A stretch of 59,031 nt of DNA, the filler included. It is 4 parts of 4 records of this genome, joined end to end, with 100 filler letters (N's around TTAATTAATTAA, not from the genome) between each part and the next. Parts side by side here need not be neighbours in the genome. Positions count along the whole stretch, not along the records: positions 7,354 to 37,453 come from SRR20825019_1125; 3 more parts are not named here. The stretch is one strand, 5' to 3'. The notes beneath the pieces are model-generated. The model had not been told where the DNA came from and made no database searches. It saw only the letters and a program-made list of their open reading frames with translations. This document shows positions 7,254-49,620 of the stretch, one piece after another (the stretch's first letter is position 1; the number at the start of each line of letters is the position of its first letter). The position numbers were made by a program, and so were the translations under genes.

Positions 7254-7353
7254 NNNNNNNNNNNNNNNNNNNNNNNNNNNNNNNNNNNNNNNNNNNNTTA
7301 ATTAATTAANNNNNNNNNNNNNNNNNNNNNNNNNNNNNNNNNNNNNNNNNNNN
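7254..7353. other. Artificial contig spacer (N44-TTAATTAATTAA-N44)
   Basis: Six-frame stop linker flanked by Ns; eukaryotic DNA on the left, bacterial on the right. Confidence 0.98.
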
Positions 7354-10945: not shown

Positions 10946-10963
10946 CCGGCTTGCTTGCAGGCT

Positions 10964-21962: not shown

Positions 21963-22074
21963 GATATTGGCGATCTTCTTCGCATGCGAGATCCGGCGGC
22001 GATTGCCGCCGGGAGCGAAAACCTGTGTCGCGGACGCCGCGACATGAAACAAACCACAATAAAAGAGGACGAAC

Positions 22075-23121
22075 ATGAAAAAGACATTGATTGCAGCCCT
22101 GACGCTCGCGCTGCTGGGCAGCGCCCAGGCCTATGCGCAGGAAAAAATCATCCGCTTTGCCCATGACAGCAATGGCGATATCTACGACAACCCCAACCAT
22201 GCCTGCGCCTCGGTATTCGCGGCCATCGTCAACACCGGCAGCAATGGCGCGCTGAAGGTGGAAATCTATCCGGGCGGCCAGCTTGGCACCATCGGCGAGG
22301 CCGTCCAGATGGTCCGCGACGGCGTCATCGAGGTCACCAATGCCTCGACCGGCGCGCTCGCCCCCTATTATCCAAACATCGACGTTCTGAACCTGCCCTT
22401 CGCTTTTGCCAGCAACGGCGCCGCCGATACCGTGTTCAATGGTCCGTTCGGTTACGCGCTGAAGCAGGATATCGAGGACAAGCTCGGCGATGTCGTTGTG
22501 CTCGGCTACCCGGATACCGGGGGCCTGTTCGTCATCTCGAATTCCGAGAAGCCGATCTCGTCGCTTGACGACATGAAGGGCATCCGCCTGCGCACCATGA
22601 CGCTGCCGTCGCATCAGGCGATCATGAACGCACTCGGCATGGAAGCCTATCCGCTGGCATTCTCGGAAGTCTATTCCGGTCTGCAGACCGGCGTCATCGA
22701 CGGCCAGATGAACCCGATCCCGATCCTGGTCTCGGCCAAGCTCGACGAGGTGCAGCAGTATCTGACGCTGACCAACCACCTCTATTCGCCGTTCACGATG
22801 CTGTTCAACAAGGCCTTCTATGACGACCTGACGGAAGACCAGAAGGACCTGATCCACACCGCCGCGCAGTCCTGCGAGAACGCCGCGCGCGGCATCTCGC
22901 GGATCATCGAGGCCTCCGACCGCGGTCTCGCCGGGCTTTCCGGCAAGATGACGATCACCGCGCTTTCGCCCGAGGATCGCGCCCAGATGCGTGAGGTCAC
23001 CGATGTCGCCTTCGACAAGTACATGGCGGAAAACCATGGCGAGGATGCACTCGCACTGGTCGACCTGCTCAAGGAAGAAAGCCAGAAGGCCAACTCGACC
23101 CGCTATTTCGGCGAGGAATGA
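22075..23121 (+). CDS. dctP: TRAP transporter solute-binding protein (DctP)
   Basis: Signal peptide; YPGGQLG; MKGIRLR; FSEVYSGLQTGVIDGQMNP. Confidence 0.95.
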   Translation: MKKTLIAALTLALLGSAQAYAQEKIIRFAHDSNGDIYDNPNHACASVFAAIVNTGSNGALKVEIYPGGQLGTIGEAVQMVRDGVIEVTNASTGALAPYYPNIDVLNLPFAFASNGAADTVFNGPFGYALKQDIEDKLGDVVVLGYPDTGGLFVISNSEKPISSLDDMKGIRLRTMTLPSHQAIMNALGMEAYPLAFSEVYSGLQTGVIDGQMNPIPILVSAKLDEVQQYLTLTNHLYSPFTMLFNKAFYDDLTEDQKDLIHTAAQSCENAARGISRIIEASDRGLAGLSGKMTITALSPEDRAQMREVTDVAFDKYMAENHGEDALALVDLLKEESQKANSTRYFGEE

Positions 23122-23210
23122 GCCGATCCGAATGCCGGGGGAGGGTGTCTTCCCCCGGAACCGCCGGGCGGAGCCGCCCGACAACCCATCACTCAGTACA
23201 GGAATTCAAA

Positions 23211-23954
23211 ATGCGTTCGAGCCTTGGTGAAACCCGATCGAGCATCAAGCGCTCCCACGCGCTCATCTGCGTGGACAGCCACGAGATCATCAGCCTGCCG
23301 CACTGGCCGGGCACCGAAATCATCTCCTATGTGACGCCGGGCCTCGGCGCGGGGTTTTCCCTGTTCCGGATCACCGCGACGCGCGAAACCCGGATACCGC
23401 CGCCGCCGCATGACGGCATCCGCTTCATCCTGCTGCGTGCCGGCCGGGTGGACGTCCGCGACGGGGCGGAGGCCCATACCCTTGAGACGGACGAATATGC
23501 CTATCTGCCGCAGGCGAGCGGCTTCACGCTGGACATGGCGGACGGTACGGAACTCCTCTGCCTCGAACATGCCTACAAACCGTTGGCCGGTGCAAAGCCG
23601 CCCGGGCCGGTCTTCGGCTCGATAGCGTCTGTCGCTGCCGTTCCGCTGAAGGGAAACGAACAGCTTCATGTCCAGAAACTCCTGCCGGAGGAACCGGGGT
23701 TCGACATGGAGGTCAACGTGATGACCTTCGCGCCCGGCGGCTCGCTGCCCTATGTGGAAACCCATTTCATGGAGCATGGCCTGGTGATGCTCGACGGCGG
23801 CGGCATCTATCGCCTCGATGACCAGTGGTATCCGGTCGCGCGCGGCGACGCCATCTGGATGGCGCCGTTCTGCCCGCAATGGTTCGGGGCGCTCGGGCGC
23901 GGCGATGCGCGCTACCTGATCTACAAGAACTGGAATCGCGACCCGCTGGTGTGA
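23211..23954 (+). CDS. allE: (S)-ureidoglycine aminohydrolase (bicupin, AllE/YlbA-like)
   Basis: FDMEVNVMTFAPGGSLPYVETHFMEHGL..GIYRLDDQWYPV..GDAIWMAPFCPQWF..YLIYKNWNRD. Confidence 0.9.
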   Translation: MRSSLGETRSSIKRSHALICVDSHEIISLPHWPGTEIISYVTPGLGAGFSLFRITATRETRIPPPPHDGIRFILLRAGRVDVRDGAEAHTLETDEYAYLPQASGFTLDMADGTELLCLEHAYKPLAGAKPPGPVFGSIASVAAVPLKGNEQLHVQKLLPEEPGFDMEVNVMTFAPGGSLPYVETHFMEHGLVMLDGGGIYRLDDQWYPVARGDAIWMAPFCPQWFGALGRGDARYLIYKNWNRDPLV

Positions 23955-24055: not shown

Positions 24056-25240
24056 TCAGGGCCTCGTCATGCCAAGATGCGCGGCGCAGATGTCGGCTAT
24101 GGAGGTGAAGGGCATCAGGCCAAGGGAACATGGCGCAATGCCCGGACCGGCTACCAGCACCGGGACCCGTTCACGGGTGTGATCCGTGCCGGACCAGGTC
24201 GGGTCATTGCCGTGGTCGGCGGTTATGGCAAGCAGATCGCCTTCACTGAGCCGCTGGAGCAGCGACGGCATGCGGGCATCGAAGGCTTCGAGCGCGCGGG
24301 CATAGCCGGCCACATCCCGGCGGTGACCCCACAGACTGTCGAATTCGACGAAGTTGGCGAACACCAGATCGCCGGGGCCTGCCTTGCCCGTCCACTCCAG
24401 CAGCCCGTCGAACAGCGCCATGTCATCCGCGCCCTTGGTGACATCGTCGATGCCGCGATGCGCGAAGATATCGCCGATCTTGCCGACCGCGTGCACTTGC
24501 CCGCCGTTTTCGCGGACCCGGTCGCACAGCGTTCCATGCGGCGGAGCGATCGCGAAATCACGACGGTTCGCGGTGCGGTGGAAACTCTGCGGGCTTTCGC
24601 CCGCAAAAGGACGGGCGATCACCCGCCCGACATTCATGGGATGGAATATGTTCGCAGCGATGCGGCAGATCTCCAGCAGCCTTTCGAGACCAAATGCCTG
24701 CTCATGCGCCGCGATCTGCACGACGCTGTCGGCGGAGGTGTAGACGATCGGCCATCCTGTTTCGATGTGCTGAAGGCCGAACCGCCTGATGACTTCCGTG
24801 CCCGAGGCGTGGCCGTTGGCAAGCGTGCCGGCGATGCCGGACCGTTCGGCCAGCGCCGTCATCGCCTCCGATGGAAAGGCAGGGACGGTCCGGGGGAAAT
24901 AGTGCCAGTCCCGCTCCACGACCTTGCCTGCCAGTTCCCAATGACCGGATTGTGTGTCCTTGCCCTTCGAGCTTTCCTCGGCCGCGCCGAAACGGGCCGG
25001 TGCGTCGGCGGCAAGGCCCGGCGCGATCGCGCCTGAAGCGAGCGTGATTGCGCGCCCGAGACCGAGCGCATCGAGATGGGGAACGCGCAAGGGGCCGGCG
25101 CGCCCGCTCTCCGCCCTGCCGGCGGCGCAAGCCTCGGCGATGTGCAGGAGCGTGTTGGCGCCCTCGTCGCCGTAAAGCGCGGCGTCAGCAGCCCCACCGC
25201 AGCCGACGGAATCAAGAACGCAGAGAAACACCCTCGACAT
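24056..25240 (-). CDS. deoB: Phosphopentomutase
   Basis: LDSVGCG, GKDTQSGHWE, YTSADSV, RVIARPF, NRRD, DSLWGHRRD, TADHGNDP, TDHTRERVP. Confidence 0.95.
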   Translation of the reverse strand: MSRVFLCVLDSVGCGGAADAALYGDEGANTLLHIAEACAAGRAESGRAGPLRVPHLDALGLGRAITLASGAIAPGLAADAPARFGAAEESSKGKDTQSGHWELAGKVVERDWHYFPRTVPAFPSEAMTALAERSGIAGTLANGHASGTEVIRRFGLQHIETGWPIVYTSADSVVQIAAHEQAFGLERLLEICRIAANIFHPMNVGRVIARPFAGESPQSFHRTANRRDFAIAPPHGTLCDRVRENGGQVHAVGKIGDIFAHRGIDDVTKGADDMALFDGLLEWTGKAGPGDLVFANFVEFDSLWGHRRDVAGYARALEAFDARMPSLLQRLSEGDLLAITADHGNDPTWSGTDHTRERVPVLVAGPGIAPCSLGLMPFTSIADICAAHLGMTRP

Positions 25241-25983
25241 CAGGAAAGCTGGAAGCGTTCGAGTGCGTGGCGCCGGATGAGGTTAACGACCTCATAGAAT
25301 CCCCAGCCGATCAGCGAAAGCAGCAATACGACGCCGATCACCACCGCCGTGTCGCCGTTTTCCTGGCCGGAAGCCAGAAGATAGCCGAGCCCCTTGTTGG
25401 CGCCCATGAGTTCGCCGATGACGGCGGCCGTCATCGCCAGCGTGGTCGCAACCGCCATGCCGGCGAGAACCGACGGCAGCGAGGAGGGCAGTTCGATGCG
25501 CCAGAACATCTGCCACGGATTGAGCCGCAGCACCTTGGCGAGATCGCGATAGCTGCCTTCGCCATAGCGCAGCCCGCTCACCATGCCGGACATGACCGGG
25601 AAGAACGTGACGATCGCGACCAGCACGATTTTCGGCATGGGGCCAATGCCCAGCCACAAAAGCAGCAGCGGGGCAATGGCGATCTTGGGGGCCGTCTGCA
25701 GCAGCAGAATGGCCGGCGTGGCAAGTCGCTCGACGCGGGGCAGGCGGTCGAAGACGATTCCGGCGAGAACTCCCGCAGTGGTCCCGGCAGCAAAGCCGGC
25801 GATGATTTCCTGAAGCGTTACCCAGGTGTTTTCCATCAGGCCGGCATTCGTGAACAGAAATGCCATCCGCTCGGCAACCGCCACGGGCCCCGGCAGAAGA
25901 AACGCCGGGACGCGAAACACGTTGACGATCAGGACCCAGATAACCAGGGTTGCGATCAGGCCCGCTATGCCACGCACGAACAT
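25240..25983 (-). CDS. ABC transporter permease (SsuC/TauC-like)
   Basis: FLLPGP, QTAPKIAIAPL, TFFPV, IELPSSLP, GELMGANKGLG. Confidence 0.92.
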   Translation of the reverse strand: MFVRGIAGLIATLVIWVLIVNVFRVPAFLLPGPVAVAERMAFLFTNAGLMENTWVTLQEIIAGFAAGTTAGVLAGIVFDRLPRVERLATPAILLLQTAPKIAIAPLLLLWLGIGPMPKIVLVAIVTFFPVMSGMVSGLRYGEGSYRDLAKVLRLNPWQMFWRIELPSSLPSVLAGMAVATTLAMTAAVIGELMGANKGLGYLLASGQENGDTAVVIGVVLLLSLIGWGFYEVVNLIRRHALERFQLS

Positions 25984-25985
25984 GG

Positions 25986-26990
25986 TTACTTCCCGACCAT
26001 GGACGGATCGATGACGAAGTCCTCGGCCTTCGGCGCCTCTTCGATCACGCCATACTCGGCCAGCATATCGGCGTTCTTCTGCCAGCCGGCGAGATCGGCG
26101 GCCCCGAGGCCTTTTTCCTGCGTCAGCGGGCTCTGCCAGACGGAAGGAATGAAGGTCTGTTCGAAGGCCGTCGTCAGCGTATCCTTCTGATCCTTCGGCC
26201 ATGTCGGGGCATATTTGTCGAGCGCGATGTCCAGGGCCTCGCTGACATTGCCGTCGATCACCCACTGGTAGGATTCCGTCACGGAATCGTTGAAACGCTT
26301 TACCAGGTCGGCATTGTCGGAAAGGGTCTTCTTGCTGGTGACGACGACATTGCCGAACGAGGGCAGGAAGTCGTTTGAGAGGATCATCGTGACCTCGTCC
26401 CCGGCGGCTTCGAGACTGTATTTGCGCAATTCGGAGAAGACGATCGCATCGACCTGATCCGCCTGAAGCGCCTGGACGATCGCGCCGGTGGCGATCACCT
26501 CGACCTTGACGTCATCGAGGGTCAGGCCGGCGCTTTTCAGGCCGGCCTGAAGCTGAAGATAGTTCGGGCTTGCAAGACTGGTGACCGCGACGGTCTTGCC
26601 CTTCAGATCGGCATAGGTTTCGATGCCCGCGGACTTCTTGGCAAGCAACGCGCCGATGCCGCGCTGATAGGTGGTGTGCACGACCTCCACCGGCAGGCCG
26701 TTTGCGGCCGCGGCAACGACGGCATCGCCATTCGGGAAACCGAAATCGACATTGCCGACAGCGATGTTGGTGAGAATATCGGAGGCGCCGGCATAGATGA
26801 ACTCGACATCGATCCCGTTCTTGTCGAAGAAGCCCTTTTCGACGCCGGCATAGAGCGGCGCATAGAAAGGCACGGCGGCGCCGTCGATCTGGAACACCAC
26901 TTCGTCATTGGCAAGGGCGGTCGACGCGAGGAGTGGGAGGGCGAGCGCGCCAATGAGGATGGCGCCGGATTTCTTGAGGATGCTGGTCAT
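25986..26990 (-). CDS. ABC transporter substrate-binding protein (NMT1/THI5-like)
   Basis: Signal peptide; PFYAPLYAGVEKGFFDKNGIDVE; DLKGKTVAV. Confidence 0.88.
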   Translation of the reverse strand: MTSILKKSGAILIGALALPLLASTALANDEVVFQIDGAAVPFYAPLYAGVEKGFFDKNGIDVEFIYAGASDILTNIAVGNVDFGFPNGDAVVAAAANGLPVEVVHTTYQRGIGALLAKKSAGIETYADLKGKTVAVTSLASPNYLQLQAGLKSAGLTLDDVKVEVIATGAIVQALQADQVDAIVFSELRKYSLEAAGDEVTMILSNDFLPSFGNVVVTSKKTLSDNADLVKRFNDSVTESYQWVIDGNVSEALDIALDKYAPTWPKDQKDTLTTAFEQTFIPSVWQSPLTQEKGLGAADLAGWQKNADMLAEYGVIEEAPKAEDFVIDPSMVGK

Positions 26991-27778
26991 GAGAAGTCTG
27001 TTCCCTTCTGGTTGCTGAGTGAGAATGCCAGCCCTGCAATTCTGAGCAGATTGCGCTGGGTCGGCTCGTAATCATCAAGCCACTGGTCCGTGGCCCGATT
27101 TCCATGCACGCCAAGCAAGGCGGCGCATTTCAGGCCGACGGCAGCGCCGACCGTGAAGGTGGTTTCGCATTCCATCTCGACGCCGATCGCGCCGAGGCCT
27201 TGCAATTTTTCGATGAACCCGCCGGAGCGATGGTGGTGATCGAGGCGGAAACGCCGGTCCTGGCCGAAATAATAGCTGTCTGTGGAACCCACGATCCCGG
27301 TCCTGCACGCAAGCCCGCAGCGGCCGGCGGCTTCGCCGAGCCTTCCCACCAGCGACGCATCGGCCTCTGCCGTGCCGCCCGCCATCCGGTAGCGGGAGGC
27401 CGTGCCGGTGTCGCCGACCGCGCGCTCGACCGCGATGAAGCTGCCGACAGGATAGGCCTCGTCGAGCGCGGACATACCGCCGATGCGGATCACCTGGCGT
27501 GCGCCGAGCATGGCCAGTTCCACCAGCGCGATTTCGGTGGATGGGCCGCCGATGCCGGTCGAGCAGATGGTCACGGGCTCGCCCTGATAGCGGCCGGTGA
27601 TCACCGCATATTCGCGTTTTCGGCCGAAATCGCGGACATCGCTCAGCATGTCGGCCAGCAGGCGAACGCGGTCCGGATCTCCGGGCGTCAGAACATTCTC
27701 GGCGATGTCGCCGGGTCCGCATGGCAGATGCGGCGGACGGCCGTCCTTCCAGGGAAAGGAAGCGCTGGTTTCAGCCAT
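26987..27778 (-). CDS. Uridine-phosphorylase-like nucleoside phosphorylase with an atypical base pocket
   Basis: PHL, PGDPDRV, KREY, STGIGGPSTEIALVEL, DSYYFGQDR, EMEC; but RIGGMS replaces RIGTTG and VHGNR replaces VIVNR. Confidence 0.88.
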   Translation of the reverse strand: MAETSASFPWKDGRPPHLPCGPGDIAENVLTPGDPDRVRLLADMLSDVRDFGRKREYAVITGRYQGEPVTICSTGIGGPSTEIALVELAMLGARQVIRIGGMSALDEAYPVGSFIAVERAVGDTGTASRYRMAGGTAEADASLVGRLGEAAGRCGLACRTGIVGSTDSYYFGQDRRFRLDHHHRSGGFIEKLQGLGAIGVEMECETTFTVGAAVGLKCAALLGVHGNRATDQWLDDYEPTQRNLLRIAGLAFSLSNQKGTDFS

Positions 27779-28538
27779 TGCCTTCACCCTTCCAGGAAAG
27801 CAGGCGATGCTCGAGCGCCGTCACGATCACATGCAGCAGAAGCCCGACGGCAACCGTGAGGCCGACCATCGCAAACAGCAGGCCGGTCTTGTAGGTCGCG
27901 GTCGCAAACGTCATCAGATAGCCGAGCCCCTGCTGGCCCGACATCCATTCGGCCAGTACCGCGCCGACCAGAGCCTGGACGACCCCGATCTTCAGGCCGA
28001 CGAAGATGTCGGGGAGCGCCGCCGGCAGCTCGATCTGGCGAAAGGAGGCAAAGCGCCCAAGCCGCAGAAGGCGCGACAGATCCCTCATCTTCGGATCAAG
28101 GCCGCGAAAACCCGTCGTCGCGCCGACAAAGATCGGAAAAAACACCAGCGATACGATCAGGATGATCTTCGATGTGATGCCGGAGCCGAACCAGACGATG
28201 AAAAGCGGGGCAAGCGCGATCTTCGGCGCTGTCTGCAGGATTACCAGCGGCCCGTCGAACCAGGTCGCCAGCCGGGAAAACCGGGTCATGACATAGCCAA
28301 GCGCAAGGCCCGCGACGCTGCCGGCGACAAGGCCGATGACGATATTTTTCAAGGTGAAGCCAAGGTTGGTCCAAAGCGTGCCGTCGACTGCGATCTTCAC
28401 CAGGGCATTCCATGTGCTTGCCGGCGAAGGCATCAGATAGGGCGGCAGTTCGACGATCGCGGTCGCATACCACCACGCGCCGAGCAGCACGAGAACGGCA
28501 AGCGCGTAATCGAATGTTGCGGAGAGACGGCGTTTCAT
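27771..28538 (-). CDS. ABC transporter permease (SsuC/TauC-like)
   Basis: YLMPSP, QTAPKIALAPL, VFFPI, IELPAALP, AEWMSGQQGLG. Confidence 0.92.
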   Translation of the reverse strand: MKRRLSATFDYALAVLVLLGAWWYATAIVELPPYLMPSPASTWNALVKIAVDGTLWTNLGFTLKNIVIGLVAGSVAGLALGYVMTRFSRLATWFDGPLVILQTAPKIALAPLFIVWFGSGITSKIILIVSLVFFPIFVGATTGFRGLDPKMRDLSRLLRLGRFASFRQIELPAALPDIFVGLKIGVVQALVGAVLAEWMSGQQGLGYLMTFATATYKTGLLFAMVGLTVAVGLLLHVIVTALEHRLLSWKGEGNG

Positions 28539-29299
28539 CAGTGAACCCCGCCGCCCGCGCCCGCGGTTTTGAGATCGTGGCGGAGCTTGGCAACGAGGGC
28601 ATGATAGGCGGGATCCAGCTTGGTCGCCTCGCCCCGGGGCCGCTCGAGCGCGACATCATGGATGCATTTCAATTTGCCCGGGCGCGCCGTCATGACCAGC
28701 ACCCGGTCGGCGAGATAGGCGGCTTCATCGACGCTGTGGGTGACCAGCAGGATCGTCTTGCCGGTTTCCTGCCAGATGCGCAGCAATTCATCGTTGAGGT
28801 TGTCGCGCGTCATCAGATCGACGGCCGAAAACGGCTCGTCCATCAGCAGGATTTCGGGGTCGTCCGACAACGCACGGGCGATCGCCGCGCGCTGGCGCAT
28901 GCCGCCGGAAAGCTGGCGTGGCAGCGCTTTCTCGAATCCTGACAGGCCGACCATGGCGATCAGGTCCCTGGCCCTGGCGTTGGCGGTGGCGCGGTTCGCG
29001 CCAGCGGTATCGAGCGGGAATCGGACATTGTCGAGAATGTTCTTCCACGGCAGCAGCACCGGCTCCTGAAAGACGAAGCCCACCGGGCGCCGGCGATGCG
29101 CCGCGTTGAGTTCTATGGTGCCGCCGCTCGGATCATCGAGGCCGGAGATCAGACGCAGCAGCGTCGACTTGCCGCAACCGGACGGCCCGACGATCGAGAT
29201 GAACTCGCCGTCCTTGATATCGACGCTCAGCGGCTCAAGGGCAGTCACCGTGCCGTGGCTTGCCTCGAAGGTTTTATGGACGCCCCTGATCTCAATCAT
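28538..29299 (-). CDS. ABC transporter ATP-binding protein (TauB/SsuB-like)
   Basis: GPSGCGKST, VFQEPVLLPW, LSGGMRQR, MDEPFSA, VTHS. Confidence 0.95.
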   Translation of the reverse strand: MIEIRGVHKTFEASHGTVTALEPLSVDIKDGEFISIVGPSGCGKSTLLRLISGLDDPSGGTIELNAAHRRRPVGFVFQEPVLLPWKNILDNVRFPLDTAGANRATANARARDLIAMVGLSGFEKALPRQLSGGMRQRAAIARALSDDPEILLMDEPFSAVDLMTRDNLNDELLRIWQETGKTILLVTHSVDEAAYLADRVLVMTARPGKLKCIHDVALERPRGEATKLDPAYHALVAKLRHDLKTAGAGGGVH

Positions 29300-29368: not shown

Positions 29369-29384
29369 GTCTCATTATTGAGAC
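29369..29384. promoter_or_regulatory. Putative XRE-regulator operator 1 (GTCTCA-TTAT-TGAGAC) upstream of the ABC-phosphorylase-deoB operon
   Basis: Perfect 6-4-6 palindrome; same core as the sites at 33105 and 36135. Confidence 0.7.
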
Positions 29385-29447: not shown

Positions 29448-31097
29448 CTATCCGTTACGCCGAACGGCAATCGCGCGGGCGATGTCGGAGAGGGCGTCAA
29501 GCTTGGCCTCGCACGACCCTTCCGCGTAAACCTTTTCGAGCTTTTCGGCATAGGTCTGCAATTCACGCAGGCAGTCCTCGCCGGCGTGATGGAGCATCGG
29601 CGTTTCATAATTGTCATCGGCAAAATCGGCAGCGACGATGCCGAGCAGGAGATAGCCCGCCGCCTTTTCGGGCTGTTTCTCCGCCTGCCGGAAGGCCACT
29701 TCCGCCGCCTTGCCGAAGGCTTTCACGGCCACCTTGTTTTCAATCACAAATGCGGGAATATCCTTGAACACTGATACTTCCTTCGTCTGGTTTTCATTCT
29801 CGAAGCGCGAATCTCCGCCAAGGTAATGGCACAGCAATTCGACCGCGCATAGCAGGTCGCCGATCTCCATCGCTTCGTCCGGATTATGCGATCCATGATC
29901 ATTTCGCACAAAAATCATCCCGGCGGAAATGCCTTTGCCGGCAAATACCGCGGCATCGTGTCCGCCGCCCGAGACCATGCGGATCGGCGCGAGCCCGGCA
30001 TCGTTCCCGGCCCGCTCCAGATCGGCGATGATTTTCCGCGACAAAGACGCGGGCGCGGTCTTCAGTGGCTCGCCCAGAACGAAGCGGACCTTGCGTGCCG
30101 CCTCGATCCGGCTGACCTCCCGTTCGAGCAACGTGTGGAAGCGCTCCAGTGTGGCAACATCATCGCTGCGCACATCAAGGCTGAAATGCACGGCGTCCGG
30201 TATTCGCGACATCGCATGGGTCGCCTCATTGGTGGAAACCACGCCGCTGGTAACCACCAGATCCCGGCCATTGTCGACGGCTTCCTGCCAGGCCTGATCC
30301 AGATGCGCCATCAGATCGGCCATCGCCAGCACCGGGTCATGGCGGTAGGCGCGCGGGACAGCGCCGGAATGGCCGCTTTCACCGAAACAGGTGATGGATT
30401 TGTAGCGGAAATTGCCCCGGATACCGGTCACCACGGCGACGGGCAGGTCGCGTTCGACCAGAACCGGCCCCTGTTCGATGTGGACCTCGATATACTGCGC
30501 GACCGCTTCCGTCCGGATCAGCGGCTCGCCGTTGCGCACCTTGCCGATGTCGATGCCGATCGCCTCCATATGCGCGGCGAGCGAATGGCCGTCATCCCTG
30601 TGGCGCGCTTCCAGTTCTTTGTCCGACAGCGTTCCGAGCAGCGCCTTGGAGCCGATGTAGCAGGGGCCGAACCACGCGCTTTCCTCGCCGCGCATCGCAA
30701 TCACCCTGACCGGCATGTGGAACGCGTTCGCCAGACCTTGGCGCACCGCCACCAGACAAAGCATGCCGGCAACGACGCCCGCCAGCCCGTCGAAATTGCC
30801 GCCCTGGTCGATGCTGTCGACATGCGAGCCGACCAGACAATAGCGTTCGGCCGCCGCGTGCTCGGGCAGGCTCATGACCAGATTGCATCCTGCGTCATAA
30901 CCGGTCGAAAGACCCTCGGCCTCGGCAACGCCCGCAAGATATTCCAGCACTTCGGTTTCCCTGGCGGAATAGGCCGGGCGGCTGACGCCCGCTTCGGCAG
31001 CGCTGATGCGCGCCACGTCGTCGAACATACGCGCCGCCAGCGATGCGAGATCGGCCGATACGATGCCGGGAGAAGGTTGAGGTCGGTGGTGCGTCAT
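29448..31097 (-). CDS. M20-family Zn amidohydrolase (N-carbamoyl-amino-acid/allantoate amidohydrolase family) with an extra ~107-aa C-terminal region
   Basis: GSHVDS..GGNFDGLAGV, RGEES, EVHIEQGPVL, GHSGAVP, SGGGHDA, SHNPDE; ATGA overlap with the pyrD stop. Confidence 0.9.
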   Translation of the reverse strand: MTHHRPQPSPGIVSADLASLAARMFDDVARISAAEAGVSRPAYSARETEVLEYLAGVAEAEGLSTGYDAGCNLVMSLPEHAAAERYCLVGSHVDSIDQGGNFDGLAGVVAGMLCLVAVRQGLANAFHMPVRVIAMRGEESAWFGPCYIGSKALLGTLSDKELEARHRDDGHSLAAHMEAIGIDIGKVRNGEPLIRTEAVAQYIEVHIEQGPVLVERDLPVAVVTGIRGNFRYKSITCFGESGHSGAVPRAYRHDPVLAMADLMAHLDQAWQEAVDNGRDLVVTSGVVSTNEATHAMSRIPDAVHFSLDVRSDDVATLERFHTLLEREVSRIEAARKVRFVLGEPLKTAPASLSRKIIADLERAGNDAGLAPIRMVSGGGHDAAVFAGKGISAGMIFVRNDHGSHNPDEAMEIGDLLCAVELLCHYLGGDSRFENENQTKEVSVFKDIPAFVIENKVAVKAFGKAAEVAFRQAEKQPEKAAGYLLLGIVAADFADDNYETPMLHHAGEDCLRELQTYAEKLEKVYAEGSCEAKLDALSDIARAIAVRRNG

Positions 31098-32035
31098 ATC
31101 ATCGCCTCCGCAAGTTCGATATTCCCTTCCGCAGGCAGCGCGGAGCCAATGATTTCCGCGATCGATGCGACGCCCTGGGCCTTGAGCGCAACCGCAAGCT
31201 CATCAACGAGCCGCGGCATGATGGTGGGATCGAGGAAATTTGCCGTGCCGACCTGAACGGCGCTGGCGCCGACCATCAGATATTCGAGAACGTCGTCGAC
31301 CGAGGAAATGCCGCCGCAGCCGATCACCGGGATGGAGACCGCGCGCGCGCACTGGTAGGCGACCCGCAGGGCCACGGGCTTGAGGGCGGGGCCCGACAGG
31401 CCGCCCAGAACATTGCCCAGCCTGAAGCGCCGGGTTTGGATGTCGACCGCAGTCGCGAGCAGCGTGTTGGTGGCAACAAGCGCATCGGCGCCGGCATCTT
31501 CGGCGGCATGAGCGATTGCGGCCACATCGCTGGCGTTGGGCGAAAGCTTGGCCCAGAGCGGAAGATCAGTCGCTGCGCGCATTTGTGCGATCACCCGCGC
31601 CGTCGCTGTCTCGCTGAGCGCGAAGGCGCGGCCATCATCCTCGATATTCGGGCACGAGATATTGACCTCGATGGCGCTCACTCCGGGGAGCGTCAGAGCA
31701 CGCGCGAATGCTGCAAAGAATTCGGCAGAGGGGGCCGAGACGCTGACCACGAGGGGAACGGCGAACGCGCCGAAGGCAGGGACAATGTTGCGGATAAGGT
31801 AATCGCTGCCCTGGCTCGGAATGCCGATCGAGTTCAGCATGCCATCATGCAATTCGCAAACACGCGGGACAGGATTGCCGGCGCGCCGTTGCGGCGTCAC
31901 TGTTTTCAGCACCATCGCCCCCAGCCGGTTGAAGTCGAAGATCTCGGCCATTTCAATTCCGAACGTGCCGGAGGCCGGCATGATCGGGTTTTGCAGGGCA
32001 AGATCGCCGATACGGACGGAAAGGTCGGTCATCAC
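31094..32035 (-). CDS. pyrD: Dihydroorotate dehydrogenase class 1B catalytic subunit (possibly acting as orotate reductase)
   Basis: NPIMPASGTFG, GNPVPRV, MLNSIG, EVNISCPN (catalytic Cys), KLSPN, NTL, GGLSGPALKPVAL, VQVGTANF. Confidence 0.92.
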   Translation of the reverse strand: MMTDLSVRIGDLALQNPIMPASGTFGIEMAEIFDFNRLGAMVLKTVTPQRRAGNPVPRVCELHDGMLNSIGIPSQGSDYLIRNIVPAFGAFAVPLVVSVSAPSAEFFAAFARALTLPGVSAIEVNISCPNIEDDGRAFALSETATARVIAQMRAATDLPLWAKLSPNASDVAAIAHAAEDAGADALVATNTLLATAVDIQTRRFRLGNVLGGLSGPALKPVALRVAYQCARAVSIPVIGCGGISSVDDVLEYLMVGASAVQVGTANFLDPTIMPRLVDELAVALKAQGVASIAEIIGSALPAEGNIELAEAMI

Positions 32036-32868
32036 ACGATCTCCTCCAGCCCGAAGACCGGCCCTTCGTGACAGACCCTGAGGTTGACGCCAACGCCATC
32101 GCGGCGGAAGGGGCGGACGCAGGCCTGACAGGCGCCGACGCCGCAGGCCATGTGCTGTTCAAGCGCCGCCTCGCCGGAAATCCCATGGCTGCGACCGAGC
32201 CTTTGCATGACCCCAATAAGGCGCGCCGATCCGCAGGTATAGAAGCGGTCGACACCCTCGGTTTCAATCAGGTTCTCTATCGTTGCCTTGATGCTTTCGA
32301 CGGCGGAGTTTCCTTCGCTGTCGCTCACCGCAATGACATTGACGCCCCAGGAGCGAAACCGATCGAGCGACATCAGAAGTTCCGGCGCTCTGGCGCTGCA
32401 GATGGCGGTGACCTTCGCAGACGACCGGGAGAGCGCCTCGGCAAGCGGGGCGAGCGTTGCCAGGCCGACGCCGCGCGCAAGCAGCAGGGGATGCCGGGAA
32501 TGATGCGCCATGTCGAACCCGCGGCCCAGCGGGCCGACAAGATCGAGATCGTCGCCGGGCCGGAGGCCTGCAAGCGCGCGGGTTCCAAGACCGGTAACCT
32601 TGTAGAGGAATGAAAGCGCGCCACGCGCACGATCGAAACCGTAAATGCTCATCGGCCTGCGGAAGAAAGGCGACGGGTGGCCATCGACCGGGCAGCGCAG
32701 GTGGAAGAACTGGCCCGGCGCGCATGCGAGCATTGCCGGCTCCGCTTTGGCCACGAGCAGACGATACTCCGCATTCACCGGCCGGTTCTCGACCACGGCG
32801 GCAAGACCCTGCCGTATCGGGTACCGGGGCGAGGGGATGTTGATGACAGCTTTGGCGTGGGTGTTCAT
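32032..32868 (-). CDS. pyrK: Dihydroorotate dehydrogenase electron-transfer subunit (FAD, 2Fe-2S)
   Basis: PGQF, RRPMSI, GLGTRAL, GPLGRGF, GVGLA, TCGS, EQHMACGVGACQAC..VCHEGPVF. Confidence 0.92.
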   Translation of the reverse strand: MNTHAKAVINIPSPRYPIRQGLAAVVENRPVNAEYRLLVAKAEPAMLACAPGQFFHLRCPVDGHPSPFFRRPMSIYGFDRARGALSFLYKVTGLGTRALAGLRPGDDLDLVGPLGRGFDMAHHSRHPLLLARGVGLATLAPLAEALSRSSAKVTAICSARAPELLMSLDRFRSWGVNVIAVSDSEGNSAVESIKATIENLIETEGVDRFYTCGSARLIGVMQRLGRSHGISGEAALEQHMACGVGACQACVRPFRRDGVGVNLRVCHEGPVFGLEEIV

Positions 32869-33078
32869 GGAAATCGAAAATAGCTCCTGCGACCGGTCAA
32901 GACCGGCGCTGTCGACTGAATGGAGAATTGGAATCCCGTGGATGCGCAGATTCAATCAGCTTCGGGAAAAATCAGACAAGGCCGAAACGCGTCGGCAGCG
33001 CTCTGCTTTACGCTCGGGAAACGTTCTGAAACGGACTTTGCGAGCCATCCGAATACCTCCGGCAGGAGTTAAAAACCG

Positions 33079-33136
33079 AGGCTATTATTGCCTCGTCCCA
33101 CTGTCAAGATAATTCTCATTTTTGCGAATTATCTTG
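33079..33136 (-). promoter_or_regulatory. Sigma70 promoter of the pyrK operon (TTGACA-17-TAGCCT) abutting putative operator 2 (CAAGATAATTCTCA-TTTT-TGCGAATTATCTTG)
   Basis: TGTCAA at 33102-33107 is TTGACA on the minus strand; 14-4-14 inverted repeat with one mismatch at 33105-33136. Confidence 0.75.
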
Positions 33137-33167: not shown

Positions 33168-34448
33168 TCACCGTCCCAGAAGATTCGGCAGGAAAAGCGA
33201 GACTTGCGGGAGGTAGGTGACAATCCCAAGCGCTATGAGATTGGCGAGGATGAAAGGCCATACGCCGGCTATGATCGCCGTGACCGGTTTCTGCAGGGTG
33301 GAGGAGGCGACGAAAATGTCGAGCCCGAATGGCGGCGTGATCATCCCGATGCAGATATTGAGCGTCATGATCATGCCGAGATGAACCGGATCGATGCCAA
33401 GCGCCATCGCCGCCGGAAACAGTGCCGGCACCAGAATGATCAGCGCCGAATTGGGATCGATGAACATGCCGGCAATCAGGAAGATCGCGTTGACGATCAG
33501 CAGAAAGACGAACGGCCCCGCCTGAACCAGATCGAGGAACCCGATGATCGCCTGCGGCATGCGGGCGAGGGTGATGAAATGGGCGAGAATGCTTCCGAAG
33601 GCGAGCAGCATGAAGATCACCGATGTCGAGATCGCCGCGCGTTCGGTCACCTCAAACAGTTTCCTGAGCGAGAGGCTTCTGTAGACCGCGAATTCGATGA
33701 TAATCGCATAGACCACGCTGACGGCGGCGGCTTCGGTCGGCGTGAAGAAGCCCGAATAGATCCCCCCGAGAATGATCACGGGCATGCCGAGCGCACCGAG
33801 CGCCTCCCGACTGGCGGCGATGCGTTCGGCAAAGCCTGCTGGCTCGCCGCGCTTGATCCCGCACCGCCTCGCCTCGATCGCGACATAGACGGCAAAGACG
33901 AGAGCCAGCAGCAGACCGATGGAAAGCCCGCCGATAAACAGTTCGGAAATCGAGGTTCCCGTGATCCAGCCATAGACGATGATCGTGATCGACGGGGGGA
34001 TGAGCAATGCCGTCTCGGCGCTCGAAACGATCAGCCCGAGCGAAAACTTCTCGCTGAAACCGGCCTTGCGCATTTCCGGATAGACCATGCCGCCCATTGC
34101 CGCCACGGTGGCCGGCGCCGACCCCGAGATCGACCCGAAGGTGAGCGCGCCGCCGATGGCCGAATACCCGATCCCTCCGGCCATATGGCCGCAGAGCGAG
34201 CGCACGAAAACCATCAGCCGTCGCGCGATCTGTCCTTCCCCCATCAGCTCGGCGGCGAAGATGAAGAACGGGATCGCCAGCAGGGTTGAATGGTCGACGC
34301 CCCCGACAATGCGCTGCATTATCGATGTCATCGGGAGCGACGCGAAATAGGCCTGCTTGATCAGCAGCGCTGGGACTCCCAGCACCAGAAAAATTTCGAA
34401 GCCTGCGACCAGCAGCAGTCCGGCAAGTATGATGATGACAACCAACAT
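33168..34448 (-). CDS. dctM: TRAP transporter large permease (DctM)
   Basis: LLAIPFFIFAAELM, GSISGSAPAT, LIPPS, TPTEAA, ITPPFG. Confidence 0.95.
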   Translation of the reverse strand: MLVVIIILAGLLLVAGFEIFLVLGVPALLIKQAYFASLPMTSIMQRIVGGVDHSTLLAIPFFIFAAELMGEGQIARRLMVFVRSLCGHMAGGIGYSAIGGALTFGSISGSAPATVAAMGGMVYPEMRKAGFSEKFSLGLIVSSAETALLIPPSITIIVYGWITGTSISELFIGGLSIGLLLALVFAVYVAIEARRCGIKRGEPAGFAERIAASREALGALGMPVIILGGIYSGFFTPTEAAAVSVVYAIIIEFAVYRSLSLRKLFEVTERAAISTSVIFMLLAFGSILAHFITLARMPQAIIGFLDLVQAGPFVFLLIVNAIFLIAGMFIDPNSALIILVPALFPAAMALGIDPVHLGMIMTLNICIGMITPPFGLDIFVASSTLQKPVTAIIAGVWPFILANLIALGIVTYLPQVSLFLPNLLGR

Positions 34449-34459
34449 GGGTCCTGATC

Positions 34460-34948
34460 CTAGCTTTGAGCCGAAAAGCGGTCATACCTGCCGAGTGCGC
34501 TTAGCAGGAACCTGAGCGCCAGCAGGCCGAACCCGATCGTCGGAGCGGCGTAAAGCCATGCGGTCGATATGTTCAGCGTGGGATTTTTCTGGTGAAGACG
34601 CAGCACGAAAGCGCACATCTGCCAACCGAGATAGGCAAGCTCCAGCGAAACCAGAAGACCGGTGATGTCGATGATCAGCCTGATCGGAAGACGGGTTTTC
34701 TCCGCTATCCTGTCGCGCCATGAGTTGATGCAGACCTGCCGTCCCTTTTCCAGCGCAAGACCGGCCGTCAGGAACACGAGGTAAAGGTTGAGAATGCCGA
34801 CCAGCGGATCGATCCAGACGAAATCGGACGCCCGTCTCGGCGCGACTTCGCGGACGACGACATTGGTGAAGTAGAGGGCGACCATCGTCAAAAAGACAGC
34901 GACGATAACCAGACGCTCCGCGTTGCGCAAAAACTTGAGGATTCCCAT
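34460..34948 (-). CDS. dctQ: TRAP transporter small permease (DctQ)
   Basis: 4 TM, located between dctP and dctM; NVVVRE; PTLNISTAWLYAAP. Confidence 0.88.
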   Translation of the reverse strand: MGILKFLRNAERLVIVAVFLTMVALYFTNVVVREVAPRRASDFVWIDPLVGILNLYLVFLTAGLALEKGRQVCINSWRDRIAEKTRLPIRLIIDITGLLVSLELAYLGWQMCAFVLRLHQKNPTLNISTAWLYAAPTIGFGLLALRFLLSALGRYDRFSAQS

Positions 34949-34987
34949 CGGAACGCTCCGGTTGGAAGGCAGAACCAAAAAGACCAA

Positions 34988-35015
34988 GCCGCGAAAACCC
35001 GAAGGCTTTCGCGGC
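34988..35015 (-). terminator. Stem-loop after dctP (attenuating terminator)
   Basis: GCCGCGAAA / TTTCGCGGC stem followed on the minus strand by TTGGTCTTTTT. Confidence 0.6.
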
Positions 35016-35037
35016 CGTGAGGCTTTTCGTGGCGGTA

Positions 35038-36063
35038 TTACTGGCCGGAAACGCGGCTGTATTCGCTCTCGTAAACGTCGATAAGCTGCTGTCCGGCAGC
35101 GCCCGCACGATCCAGATAGGCGCTCTTGGTGGCGGGATACATGATCTCCCGGAACCTGGCCTTCATCGCGTCGTCGGCAATCTGCACGTTCATCCCCTGT
35201 TCCTTGACGGCGGCAAGCGCATCATCGATCGCGGCTTGCTTGTGCGTCATCAGTTCCGGAATAACCTCGCGGAACGTATCCGCGATCACCGTCTGGTATT
35301 CGGCCGGCAGGCTGTCCCAGAATGCCGGGTTGAACAGGATGACGTCCTCCATCGCGCCGTGGTTGGAGACCAGAAGGTTCTTCTGGACCTCGTAATACTT
35401 CATGTTGCGGATGGTATCGAGCGGGTTTTCCTCGCCGTCGACGACGCCGGTCTGAAGGGCGGTGTAGAGCTCGGAGAAAGCAATCGGCGTCGCTGCCGCA
35501 TCGATTGCCTTGAACTGCTCGACAAGAATGTTTGAATCCATCACCCGGAACTTTGAACCTGCAAAATCCTCGACCGTGGCGATCGGGCTGTTGGAGGTGA
35601 AGTTCTTCTTGCCGTTTGGCCACAGGCCGAGGCAGGTTACGCCGTAATCACTGAAGGTGTCACAGAGCGCCTCGCCGAATTGGCCCTCGATGATCTCCTG
35701 ATGCTGCTCGTCGCTCTCCGGCAGGAGATAGGGAATATCGAGGATCGAAACCGCCGGATTGAACCCGCCCAGAAAAGCCGCCGGCGAAATCGTCGCCTCG
35801 ATCGTCCCGAGCTGAACGCCCTCTGTCATCTCCCGCTGCTGGCCGAGTTGGCCCTGCGGGAAGATCTGGAATTCGACATCGCCATTGGTTCGTTCGCTGA
35901 CCAGGGAGGCGACCTTTTCCAGCATGACATTGCGGGTCTGCTGCGGCGCTTCGAGGTGCCCGATCTTGGCGACATACTGGGCAGCTTCGGCTGAAAACGG
36001 CACCAAAGCCGCTATCAGCGCGCCGGCAAGCACTTGACGGCGATTGAAGGAAAGGACGAGCAT
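35038..36063 (-). CDS. dctP: TRAP transporter solute-binding protein (DctP), possible Tat-type signal
   Basis: NRRQVLAG signal; FPQGQLG; SKFRVM (conserved Arg); FSELYTALQTGVVDGEENP. Confidence 0.95.
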   Translation of the reverse strand: MLVLSFNRRQVLAGALIAALVPFSAEAAQYVAKIGHLEAPQQTRNVMLEKVASLVSERTNGDVEFQIFPQGQLGQQREMTEGVQLGTIEATISPAAFLGGFNPAVSILDIPYLLPESDEQHQEIIEGQFGEALCDTFSDYGVTCLGLWPNGKKNFTSNSPIATVEDFAGSKFRVMDSNILVEQFKAIDAAATPIAFSELYTALQTGVVDGEENPLDTIRNMKYYEVQKNLLVSNHGAMEDVILFNPAFWDSLPAEYQTVIADTFREVIPELMTHKQAAIDDALAAVKEQGMNVQIADDAMKARFREIMYPATKSAYLDRAGAAGQQLIDVYESEYSRVSGQ

Positions 36064-36100: not shown

Positions 36101-36183
36101 ATGTTAGATCGGTTTTTGGATGGGGGTCAAGAATATTCTCAAAAATGCGAATTATCGCTTTTCAGTTATATTTTTTGAGAATT
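36101..36183. promoter_or_regulatory. Divergent dctP/XRE promoter region with putative operator 3 (ATTCTCA-AAAA-TGCGAAT, 36135-36152)
   Basis: Minus-strand TTGACC-18-TAACAT lies next to the palindrome, as at operator 2; extra half site TGAGAATT at 36176-36183. Confidence 0.7.
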
Positions 36184-36219: not shown

Positions 36220-37113
36220 ATGACAGAACAATCCGTCTCAATTCAGGAAATCGGCAACCGCCTGAAGGCATTCCGGCTGGGCAAGGGGCTGACGCCCGAG
36301 GAGCTCGCCAAGCAGATTGGAATCTCCCGTGCTGCAATATACCGTTATGAGGCGGGCGCGACGCCAAAAGTCGACACGCTGGCATTGATCGCGGAAAAAC
36401 TGGGCGTGACGCTCACCAATATTCTCGGGATCGGCACGGAATATATCTCGACGGCTGTCGGCTTTTTCGAGCGGATGCGCCAACTTGAAGCCGATGTCGA
36501 TCAGATCAGCGTACTGTTCGGCCCGATCTCCTACCTCCTCACGACCGATGCCTACGACGCCGTGCTGCCAGAGGTTCTGGAAGAAAGCGTGCCGGCCGAT
36601 GCCCCGTTCCGCGAGAATACGCTGCGCGATATCGATACGCTGATCCAGATCCTGCTCGCGCGCAAACGCGCGTTCCGCGAGCGCAAACCGTCGATCCTCA
36701 GCCTGGTGGCGCTCGGCGAGCTCGAGCAGTTCGTCCGTTCCGGCTTTGTCGGAAGCTACCGGCCGGATGGCAGCGACCTCGCGGCGCGGCGCAAGGCGGC
36801 GCTCACCGAGGTGAACCATATCCTTGATCTCCTCGCCGATCCGCCGATCGGCGTTCAGATCGGCCTGGTGGTGGATTCGCTTCCCGGATCCTCGTTTCAG
36901 CTATTCCGAAGCGGTCAGCACAAGACGCTCTGCGTCAGCCCATATCGTCTGGGCGCCTTCCCGAATGTGCGAATCGGGGTTGCCACGGTCACCTCGGCGG
37001 CGGAGGCCATCGCGCTGCACACCGGCGTTACCGACCGCCTCTGGCGTGCCAGCCTGAAGGCCGATGATGCCATCCGGCTGATACGCTCCGAACTGATCGA
37101 CAAATACCGATAG
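36220..37113 (+). CDS. XRE-family HTH transcriptional regulator with uncharacterised C-terminal (ligand-binding?) domain
   Basis: IGNRLKAFRLGKGLTPEELAKQIGISRAAIYRYEAG; GGAG RBS; divergent from the TRAP operon. Confidence 0.9.
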   Translation: MTEQSVSIQEIGNRLKAFRLGKGLTPEELAKQIGISRAAIYRYEAGATPKVDTLALIAEKLGVTLTNILGIGTEYISTAVGFFERMRQLEADVDQISVLFGPISYLLTTDAYDAVLPEVLEESVPADAPFRENTLRDIDTLIQILLARKRAFRERKPSILSLVALGELEQFVRSGFVGSYRPDGSDLAARRKAALTEVNHILDLLADPPIGVQIGLVVDSLPGSSFQLFRSGQHKTLCVSPYRLGAFPNVRIGVATVTSAAEAIALHTGVTDRLWRASLKADDAIRLIRSELIDKYR

Positions 37114-37453: not shown

Positions 37454-37553
37454 NNNNNNNNNNNNNNNNNNNNNNNNNNNNNNNNNNNNNNNNNNNNTTA
37501 ATTAATTAANNNNNNNNNNNNNNNNNNNNNNNNNNNNNNNNNNNNNNNNNNNN
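37454..37553. other. Artificial contig spacer
   Basis: N44-TTAATTAATTAA-N44. Confidence 0.98.
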
Positions 37554-49520: not shown

Positions 49521-49620
49521 NNNNNNNNNNNNNNNNNNNNNNNNNNNNNNNNNNNNNNNNNNNNTTAATTAATTAANNNNNNNNNNNNNNNNNNNNNNNN
49601 NNNNNNNNNNNNNNNNNNNN
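49521..49620. other. Artificial contig spacer
   Basis: N44-TTAATTAATTAA-N44. Confidence 0.98.

Follow-up and report, generated by a model that had tools for sequence, protein, structure and literature searches.

Why is a class 1B dihydroorotate dehydrogenase (DHOD) encoded in one tight unit with an M20 carbamoylase? The question is raised by a 59,031-nucleotide stretch of DNA, hereafter the window, in which three tightly packed open reading frames (ORFs) on the minus strand encode a PyrK-like protein, a PyrD-like protein and an M20 amidase, the last of these in a long ORF at positions 29448-31097. A preliminary description of this sequence had proposed that the set encodes an orotate reductase plus a ureidosuccinase, and comparative genomics, a match to the orotate-liganded structure 4NN3 and hidden Markov model (HMM) scores all support that proposal. 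Our analysis suggests that the cluster is likely the enzymatic core of an orotate-utilisation regulon, in which orotate would be converted to dihydroorotate, then to N-carbamoyl-L-aspartate and finally to aspartate. The genes at the centre of this proposal, together with the transporter genes beside them, are as follows:

35038-36063, minus strand: DctP, TRAP solute-binding protein, probable orotate receptor (Pfam DctP, 1.9e-80; match to PDB entry 4NN3)
34460-34987, minus strand: DctQ, TRAP small membrane subunit (tblastn homologues of 34-56% identity, beside DctP/DctM in relatives; ORF cluster in 45 loci)
33168-34448, minus strand: DctM, TRAP large membrane subunit (Pfam DctM, 3.5e-102)
32032-32868, minus strand: PyrK-like FAD/2Fe-2S electron-transfer subunit (Pfam DHODB_Fe-S_bind, 3.4e-12; 1EP3_B, 97 bits)
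31094-32035, minus strand: class 1B DHOD catalytic subunit, proposed NADH:orotate reductase (NF005574; 1EP1_A)
29814-31097, minus strand: M20 carbamoylase domain (amino acids 1-428), candidate N-carbamoyl-L-aspartate amidohydrolase, or ureidosuccinase (TIGR01879; synteny)
29451-29780, minus strand: Z domain (amino acids 440-549), fused copy of an uncharacterised five-helix operon protein of about 105 amino acids (profile search)

The PyrK-like/PyrD-like pair and the M20 carbamoylase

The three genes overlap in the manner that the preliminary description had reported, by 4 nucleotides at each junction: GTGA at 32032-32035 combines the PyrK stop with the GTG start of PyrD, and ATGA at 31094-31097 combines the PyrD stop with the M20 start. 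An alternative ATG of PyrD, located one codon downstream of the GTG, would leave a 1-nucleotide overlap with PyrK. The PyrK-like protein starts at the ATG at 32868, and a TTG-extended version of its ORF reaches 32955.

Assignments of PyrD versus PreA, and of M20 versus AllC, were judged from the scores of curated HMMs. The PyrD-like protein scored above the cut-offs of two DHOD models (342.6 bits versus 269 for the class 1B model NF005574; 289.1 versus 270 for TIGR01037), while it reached just 113.5 bits with the PreA model (cut-off 335) and 50-98 bits with class 2 models. It aligned with the L. lactis DHODB (1EP1_A, 253.5 bits) at K44, N68, N125, C128, N130 and N190, residues whose roles we take to be those known from DHODA and DHODB structures. 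All six are conserved in 70/70 sequences (the window and 69 related loci), and the catalytic motif NISCPN, which holds N125, C128 and N130, is intact. The PyrK-like protein aligned with the L. lactis PyrK subunit (1EP3_B) with its four cluster cysteines matched, and in the same set of 70 sequences C242, C250 and C266 are present in all, and C247 in 69. The retention of the catalytic cysteine and of the 2Fe-2S cysteines, which had been claimed earlier, is therefore borne out. The PyrD-like protein thus combines the class 1B sequence model, the cysteine base with the Lys/Asn site, and an adjoining PyrK partner. As for its earlier label of "Firmicute-type class 1B", the class stands by sequence, whereas "Firmicute-type" proved loose, as the enzyme falls in a group of Proteobacteria in which it accompanies the operon.

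The M20 ORF encodes a protein of 549 amino acids, about 120 more than ordinary M20 carbamoylases. It belongs to the hydantoinase/carbamoylase-family amidases (TIGR01879, 253.4 bits versus a cut-off of 204), and all 24 aligned homologues share its metal-binding and catalytic residues (H92, D94, D103, E138, E139, H206 and H380). Among solved structures, it comes nearest to an L-carbamoylase (150 bits) and to AllC (136 bits). The best NCBIfam matches are generic or named allantoate amidohydrolase, and both fall below their cut-offs (NF009527, 375 bits versus 461; NF006771, 347 versus 399). Orthologues from loci with the same three genes are also under the named equivalog cut-offs, and the NCBI models would label these proteins just "Zn-dependent hydrolase" or "hydantoinase/carbamoylase family amidase". 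Two named functions were tried and rejected: AllC, as TIGR03176 gave 191.4 bits (cut-off 597.75) and none of 80 related loci carries a homologue of (S)-ureidoglycine aminohydrolase at E<=1e-10, and the N-carbamyl-L-glutamate amidohydrolase ErtE (NF058540, 248.5 bits versus a cut-off of 520).

This M20 group has distinguishing positions of its own. Arg227 and Arg298 are invariant within it, where L-carbamoylase, AllC and ureidoglycolate amidohydrolase have Ala/Val and Val/Ser, and the Asn that usually precedes position 298 is replaced by Ser, Ala or Thr. The two arginines are compatible with recognition of the second carboxylate of carbamoyl-aspartate, and we consider the M20 enzyme a candidate N-carbamoyl-L-aspartate amidohydrolase (ureidosuccinase, EC 3.5.1.7). 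Ureidosuccinase activity was reported in the 1950s and, to our knowledge, has no assigned gene. This agrees with the preliminary description, which knew of no established gene, and with our literature search, in which subscription papers were poorly covered and which turned up no gene assignment for EC 3.5.1.7. With the same thin subscription coverage, we found no paper describing this operon.

Related loci and the link to orotate

Species-representative genomes were scanned with an alignment of M20 homologues, which returned at least 581 stretches, and the best 80 loci were kept. All ORFs of these 80 loci were clustered and searched with profiles to count neighbours, and the family names given below were checked on representatives. 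The pyrK-pyrD-M20 triad is adjacent and on one strand in 66 of the 80 loci; ten are without it, and in four the upstream DNA is too short to tell. Beside M20, all 80 carry one or more of the triad, pyrC, pyrE and Z.

Several other neighbours belong to orotate chemistry. A dihydroorotase-type ORF (pyrC) is present in 41 of the 80 loci and starts at the M20 stop in 38 of those 41, and two representatives scored 416-421 bits with TIGR00856 (cut-off 293). The gene for orotate phosphoribosyltransferase (pyrE) is found in 61 loci (three representatives, NF001729, 294-407 bits versus a cut-off of 245). Aspartate ammonia-lyase (aspA) is encoded in seven and directly follows M20 in L073; two full-length ORFs scored 684-694 bits with TIGR00839 (cut-off 681), and a truncated ORF in L009 remained below it at 427.3. 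Homologues of the XRE-family regulator encoded in the window occur in 61 loci, including 58 of the 66 with the triad. The triad stands without pyrC or pyrE in the window, in L001-L005 and in Burkholderia lata. Its distribution is patchy: at E<=1e-40, PyrK-like proteins were found in 8/401 sampled alphaproteobacterial genomes.

Two observations from this survey concern single genomes. In L021, the dihydroorotase ORF after M20 (10877-11937) is split into two overlapping ORFs, which may reflect a frameshift or an assembly error in a metagenome-assembled genome. In the sampled alphaproteobacterial genome G174, two PyrK-like matches, 45% and 50% identical, are located on separate contigs, suggesting that its orotate-reductase modules may be duplicated.

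The triad DHOD is an extra copy, since 4/4 triad-bearing genomes of Proteobacteria tested (those of Neorhizobium, Thalassovita, Roseibium and Burkholderia lata) also encode a class 2 PyrD elsewhere (TIGR01036, 377-439 bits versus a cut-off of 200). Accordingly, in none of these four is the class 1B enzyme the organism's de novo DHOD. Weaker DHO_dh-domain matches of 105-110 bits, which were not compared with PreA, occur elsewhere in three of the four. The one Maridesulfovibrio genome presents the opposite arrangement: its M20 operon lacks a dedicated pyrKD, no class 2 enzyme is encoded, and the single DHOD is of 1B type. As a reductant, NADH is stronger than dihydroorotate, and the dihydroorotase reaction is reversible. 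Because a quinone-linked class 2 enzyme could not serve orotate reduction, organisms that rely on class 2 would need a dedicated NADH-linked orotate reductase, while those with a class 1B housekeeping enzyme would not, and the distribution fits this expectation. One published account includes the C. oroticum enzyme in class 1B and assigns class 2 to Gram-negatives (PMC10395836). With regard to gene position, about 3 kb separate the XRE end of the Maridesulfovibrio M20 cluster (L056) from the sole full DHO_dh gene found in that genome, which is class 1B and accompanied by pyrK, and pyrK-pyrD is also found within 2-3 kb in the Desulfo-type loci L037 and L052.

The transporter, too, points to orotate. 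The best PDB match of the window DctP is 4NN3 (E 2.5e-127, 428 bits, residues 22-338), with the next PDB match at 162.7 bits; the structure reportedly stems from Vetting et al. in 2015. 4NN3 is described as a TRAP binding protein of Maridesulfovibrio salexigens with bound orotic acid (PMC11668362). The DctP of L056, a Maridesulfovibrio locus, matches 4NN3 with an E value of 1.2e-180, and the gene order there is XRE-dctPQM-M20-pyrC-pyrE, with M20 directly after dctPQM. We therefore conclude that the orotate-liganded protein comes from the same kind of operon, and that the window DctP is probably an orotate receptor as well.

Transporters vary among the loci. An orthologous TRAP system is present in 45 of the 80, and twelve betaproteobacterial loci have instead a major facilitator superfamily (MFS) carrier. 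The Burkholderia-type carrier, which is preceded by a porin gene, resembles aromatic-acid/H+ symporters (TIGR00895, 342 bits, under the cut-off of 418). Since TRAP is exchanged for a carrier of this type, the imported substrate is expected to be a carboxylate. In six loci with the triad, the retrieved stretch contains no transporter gene.

A proposed route from orotate to aspartate

Taken together, these observations would fit a four-step route. Orotate would be taken up by the adjoining TRAP system DctPQM, and the PyrK-like/PyrD-like flavoprotein would reduce it with NADH to (S)-dihydroorotate, the reverse of the biosynthetic direction. A dihydroorotase, encoded after M20 in many relatives and otherwise presumably the housekeeping PyrC, would open the ring to give N-carbamoyl-L-aspartate, which the M20 enzyme would hydrolyse to L-aspartate, CO2 and NH3. 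The aspartate could then enter central metabolism, possibly through the aspartase that is encoded next in some relatives, and the divergent XRE regulator would probably control the genes via TCTCA-N4-TG(A/C)GA operators. Gene order and coupling, intact catalytic residues, family membership, conserved synteny and the orotate-bound structure of the transporter orthologue are observed; that DHOD runs in reverse, what M20 hydrolyses and which operators the regulator pairs with are inferred.

The closest precedent is Clostridium (Zymobacterium) oroticum, which ferments orotate reductively by means of an NADH-linked orotate reductase, dihydroorotase and ureidosuccinase (EC 3.5.1.7); it was as the NADH orotate reductase of this organism that class 1B DHOD was originally described. 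The proposed chemistry is the same and also begins with a class 1B NADH-linked DHOD, whereas the operon described here is proteobacterial, its DHOD is, in the relatives tested, a dedicated second one beside a class 2 housekeeping enzyme, and an importer (TRAP or MFS), a regulator of the XRE family and Z are added. We know of no gene for the clostridial ureidosuccinase.

Other known systems share parts of this design. The DHODB of L. lactis and B. subtilis, a PyrDB-PyrK heterotetramer (1EP1-3, 5KSW, 5UE9), has the same fold, cysteine, Lys/Asn site and FAD plus 2Fe-2S partner, but in the cluster described here the enzyme is not the biosynthetic DHOD in 4/4 relatives, its PyrK-like subunit is divergent, and it is coupled to a carbamoylase. 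The M20 enzyme retains the metal ligands and catalytic Glu of its solved relatives (L-carbamoylase 3N5F, AllC 1Z2L, ureidoglycolate amidohydrolase 4PXE, beta-alanine synthase 8C46/1R3N) and of ErtE, yet reaches only 96-150 bits with the solved ones, stays under the named equivalog cut-offs, has its own Arg227/Arg298 and is fused to Z. Likewise, the window DctP is related by sequence to 4NN3, its closest solved relative, and comes from the same kind of locus, although the Desulfovibrio-type loci do not have dedicated pyrKD beside M20. The logic of reducing the 5,6 double bond, opening the ring and removing the carbamoyl group is also that of the PreT/PreA-dihydropyrimidinase-beta-ureidopropionase pathway, and in some bacteria an M20 enzyme catalyses the last step of reductive uracil/thymine catabolism. 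In contrast to that pathway, the PyrD-like protein scores far under the PreA cut-off and has no ferredoxin domains, there is no dihydropyrimidinase, and the importer is one for carboxylates.

The same genes could be read as serving pyrimidine homeostasis or salvage, where orotate taken up by TRAP would be converted to UMP via PyrE, PyrK/PyrD would act as a quinone-independent biosynthetic DHOD (e.g., at low oxygen), and M20 would trim excess carbamoyl-aspartate. We regard this as unlikely, even though pyrE and pyrC are such frequent neighbours, the operon copies of pyrC and pyrE are the sole ones found in Roseibium algae and Maridesulfovibrio, and class 1B DHODs are biosynthetic in other organisms (PMC10395836). 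The carbamoylase, which has no biosynthetic role, is nevertheless the cluster's most constant component; in seven loci it is followed by aspA; the triad can stand without pyrC and pyrE; and its sporadic occurrence fits an accessory nutrient pathway. Even under salvage, the M20 enzyme would remain a ureidosuccinase. Catabolism of orotate is favoured here because the carbamoylase is constant, aspartase genes and importers are among its neighbours, and the distribution is patchy.

Two further explanations concern the substrates, and both appear quite improbable. The M20 enzyme might act on another ureido compound (allantoate, N-carbamoyl-beta-alanine or an N-carbamoyl-L-amino acid), its coupling to pyrD being incidental or for another pathway, a possibility to which the generic or allantoate-named NCBIfam matches, the likeness to L-carbamoylase and AllC, and a ureidoglycine aminohydrolase gene in the window (23118-23954) lend some weight. 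It is opposed by the low AllC and ErtE scores (191 versus 598 and 248 versus 520 bits), by the absence of ureidoglycine aminohydrolase homologues at E<=1e-10 from all 80 related loci, and by the company of the M20 gene, which in 80/80 loci lies beside the triad, pyrC, pyrE or Z. Neither a dihydropyrimidinase nor a hydantoinase was seen as a partner near M20, where dihydroorotase is the sole cyclic amidohydrolase neighbour, and the invariant Arg227/Arg298 pair would be compatible with a substrate that bears a second carboxylate. Alternatively, the true substrate might be a relative of orotate (external dihydroorotate, carbamoyl-aspartate or a substituted 6-carboxypyrimidine), with the orotate in 4NN3 a cross-reaction from a limited ligand screen. 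That ligand did come from a screen, six triad loci show no transporter, and the apparent regulon includes a second, ABC-type uptake system; against this, the orotate-contact residues of class 1 DHODs, as we take them to be, are all invariant, and pyrC and pyrE, specific for dihydroorotate and orotate respectively, are the commonest neighbours.

Several points weigh against our proposal of a dedicated orotate pathway. Neither a dihydroorotase nor pyrE gave a tblastn match at E<=1e-3 anywhere in the 59-kb window, so that ring opening would depend there on an unseen housekeeping gene. The PyrK-like protein misses every NCBIfam PyrK equivalog cut-off (best score, 120.4 versus 314). In two of the five genomes examined, those of Roseibium algae and Maridesulfovibrio, the sole pyrC and pyrE copies found are in the operon; as these are then the housekeeping copies, their adjacency ties the cluster to orotate chemistry and not to a direction. 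The M20 protein of L056 passes the model named allantoate amidohydrolase (NF006771, 435 bits versus 399), and the ureidoglycine aminohydrolase gene, present in the window only, is located 5.5 kb from M20. Finally, no measured activity for any member of this M20 group was found in the literature.

If orotate utilisation is the role of the cluster, the operon offers a specific, widely conserved and easily expressed candidate gene for ureidosuccinase. It also indicates that, in Proteobacteria, the class 1B DHOD works as a catabolic orotate reductase next to the biosynthetic class 2 enzyme, in which case the routine "pyrimidine biosynthesis" annotation of these class 1B genes would need correcting. 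In addition, the orotate-bound TRAP structure 4NN3 gains a genomic context, and attention is drawn to Z, a conserved protein without a known function, and to a possible orotidine branch. Many organisms excrete orotate, and milk contains it in abundance, so that the pathway could be important to marine, soil and plant-associated bacteria as a means of scavenging nitrogen.

Protein Z, the palindromes and the adjoining genes

The C-terminal extension of the M20 protein, of about 110 residues, corresponds to a separate conserved protein that we call Z. A Z profile finds an ORF of about 105 amino acids in 59 of the 80 loci, on the M20 strand and mostly as its own gene, usually after pyrE, sometimes directly after M20, and in Burkholderia before the MFS gene. 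Among these loci, the fusion to M20 is limited to the window and L001-L004. At least 31 protein clusters of 540-573 amino acids contain the long form of M20, which argues that the fusion is real. Because Z is fused to the M20 enzyme, it is suggested to work with it as a partner. Its sequence gives little further guidance: Pfam searches at E<=10 returned noise only and no family, the homologue alignment has no invariant residue, and in the ESM Atlas it falls in clusters named "hypothetical protein" only. An AF2 model (pLDDT 95.6) has five helices. Foldseek found nothing against the PDB at E<=0.001, and the best hits of a wide VIA search (Z score 8.9) were generic helical bundles and HPt domains, below a meaningful level for helical proteins. 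A derivation of the extension from part of PyrE, or from part of the ORF that lies downstream, was considered and rejected, as no similarity was found.

Outside the core genes, the window contains a regulator, three operator-like palindromes and an ABC operon, which lies downstream of M20 after a gap of 148 nucleotides:

36220-37113, plus strand: XRE-family helix-turn-helix regulator with a C-terminal domain of about 200 amino acids without assignment, divergent from dctP (Pfam HTH_3, 8.5e-15)
36137-36150, no strand assigned: operator-like palindrome TCTCAAAAATGCGA in the XRE/dctP intergenic region (motif search; recurs in the XRE/dctP spacer of many relatives)
33105-33136, no strand assigned: 14-nucleotide inverted repeat that holds an operator-like core (33114-33127), in the 300-nucleotide dctM-pyrK spacer, followed by a hairpin at 33077-33095
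29370-29383, no strand assigned: operator-like palindrome TCTCATTATTGAGA, upstream of the ABC operon (0 mismatches)
28538-29299, minus strand: ABC transporter ATPase (Pfam ABC_tran, 2e-33)
27771-28538, minus strand: ABC permease (ORF; tblastn orthologues of 55-72% identity in 9 loci)
26987-27787, minus strand: uridine-phosphorylase-like nucleoside phosphorylase embedded in the ABC operon (PNP_UDP_1, 1.9e-28; TIGR01718, 148.6 bits, missing the cut-off of 280)
25986-26990, minus strand: NMT1/THI5-type ABC solute-binding protein (Pfam NMT1, 3.5e-37)
25240-25983, minus strand: second ABC permease, start inferred at the ATG at 25983 (ORF; tblastn)
24056-25240, minus strand: phosphopentomutase DeoB, last gene of the ABC operon (NF003766, 476.6 bits versus a cut-off of 256)

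The palindrome TCTCA-N4-TG(A/C)GA thus occurs three times in the window: between XRE and dctP, between dctM and pyrK, and before the ABC ATPase gene, the last position being shared with L001, L002, L004, L005, L017 and L033. In its 20-mer form, with at most one mismatch, there are 2 matches versus 0.00 in 100 shuffles. Shorter forms are weak and not significant by count: the 14-mer (at most one mismatch) has 3 matches versus a mean of 1.34, with 16/100 shuffles reaching 3, and the 18-mer (at most two mismatches) has 62 matches over all loci versus 52 in one shuffle. The case therefore depends on placement and the 20-mer result, which suggest that one XRE regulon could cover the dctP, pyrK and ABC operons. 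A scan for sigma-70 promoters gave 1 site versus a shuffle mean of 3.0, and no promoter is claimed.

Two spacers show additional features. The dctM-pyrK spacer, 300 nucleotides long in the window, measures only tens of bases in related loci, and it contains on the minus strand a 30-codon ORF (32956-33048) with GGAGG seven bases upstream, which could be a leader peptide or due to chance. Between dctP and dctQ, a strong 13-bp hairpin followed by a T-run (34987-35016, minus strand) is possibly an attenuator that permits excess binding protein.

The ABC/phosphorylase module is located beside the triad in 9 of the 80 loci and is the sole transporter in the fetched stretch in six. Its NMT1-type binding protein has orthologues of 73-83% identity in nine related loci, and it was found in one of the 401 sampled alphaproteobacterial genomes, that one being G001 itself; none was found in four other genomes with the orotate cluster. 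The phosphorylase aligns with E. coli uridine phosphorylase and keeps the GQxR and EME motifs, of which GQxR is the uracil-recognising one. Given these motifs and the position of the module beside the triad, orotidine is an attractive candidate substrate, and we know of no gene for an orotidine phosphorylase. We tentatively suggest, as a possibility that we would not yet call probable, a regulon with two entries under one XRE repressor. TRAP would bring in orotate, and the ABC system would import orotidine (or another orotate nucleoside), to be split by an orotidine phosphorylase into orotate and ribose-1-phosphate; both entries would feed the NADH:orotate reductase, dihydroorotase and ureidosuccinase, with Z as partner.

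A second TRAP system is encoded on the plus strand at 20679-23954, with DctM at 20679-21962 and DctP at 22075-23121. The cupin gene mentioned above as encoding ureidoglycine aminohydrolase (23118-23954) overlaps this DctP gene by 4 nucleotides and matches the (S)-ureidoglycine aminohydrolase equivalog TIGR03214 (252.6 bits versus a cut-off of 200). The two may form a possible ureide-uptake unit, which has no synteny with M20 in other genomes. Paired runs of 44 N, with 12 bases between the runs of each pair, are present at 7254-7353, 37454-37553 and 49521-49620, and the pair at 37454-37553 interrupts a long, possibly rimO-like ORF on the minus strand at its C-terminal end.

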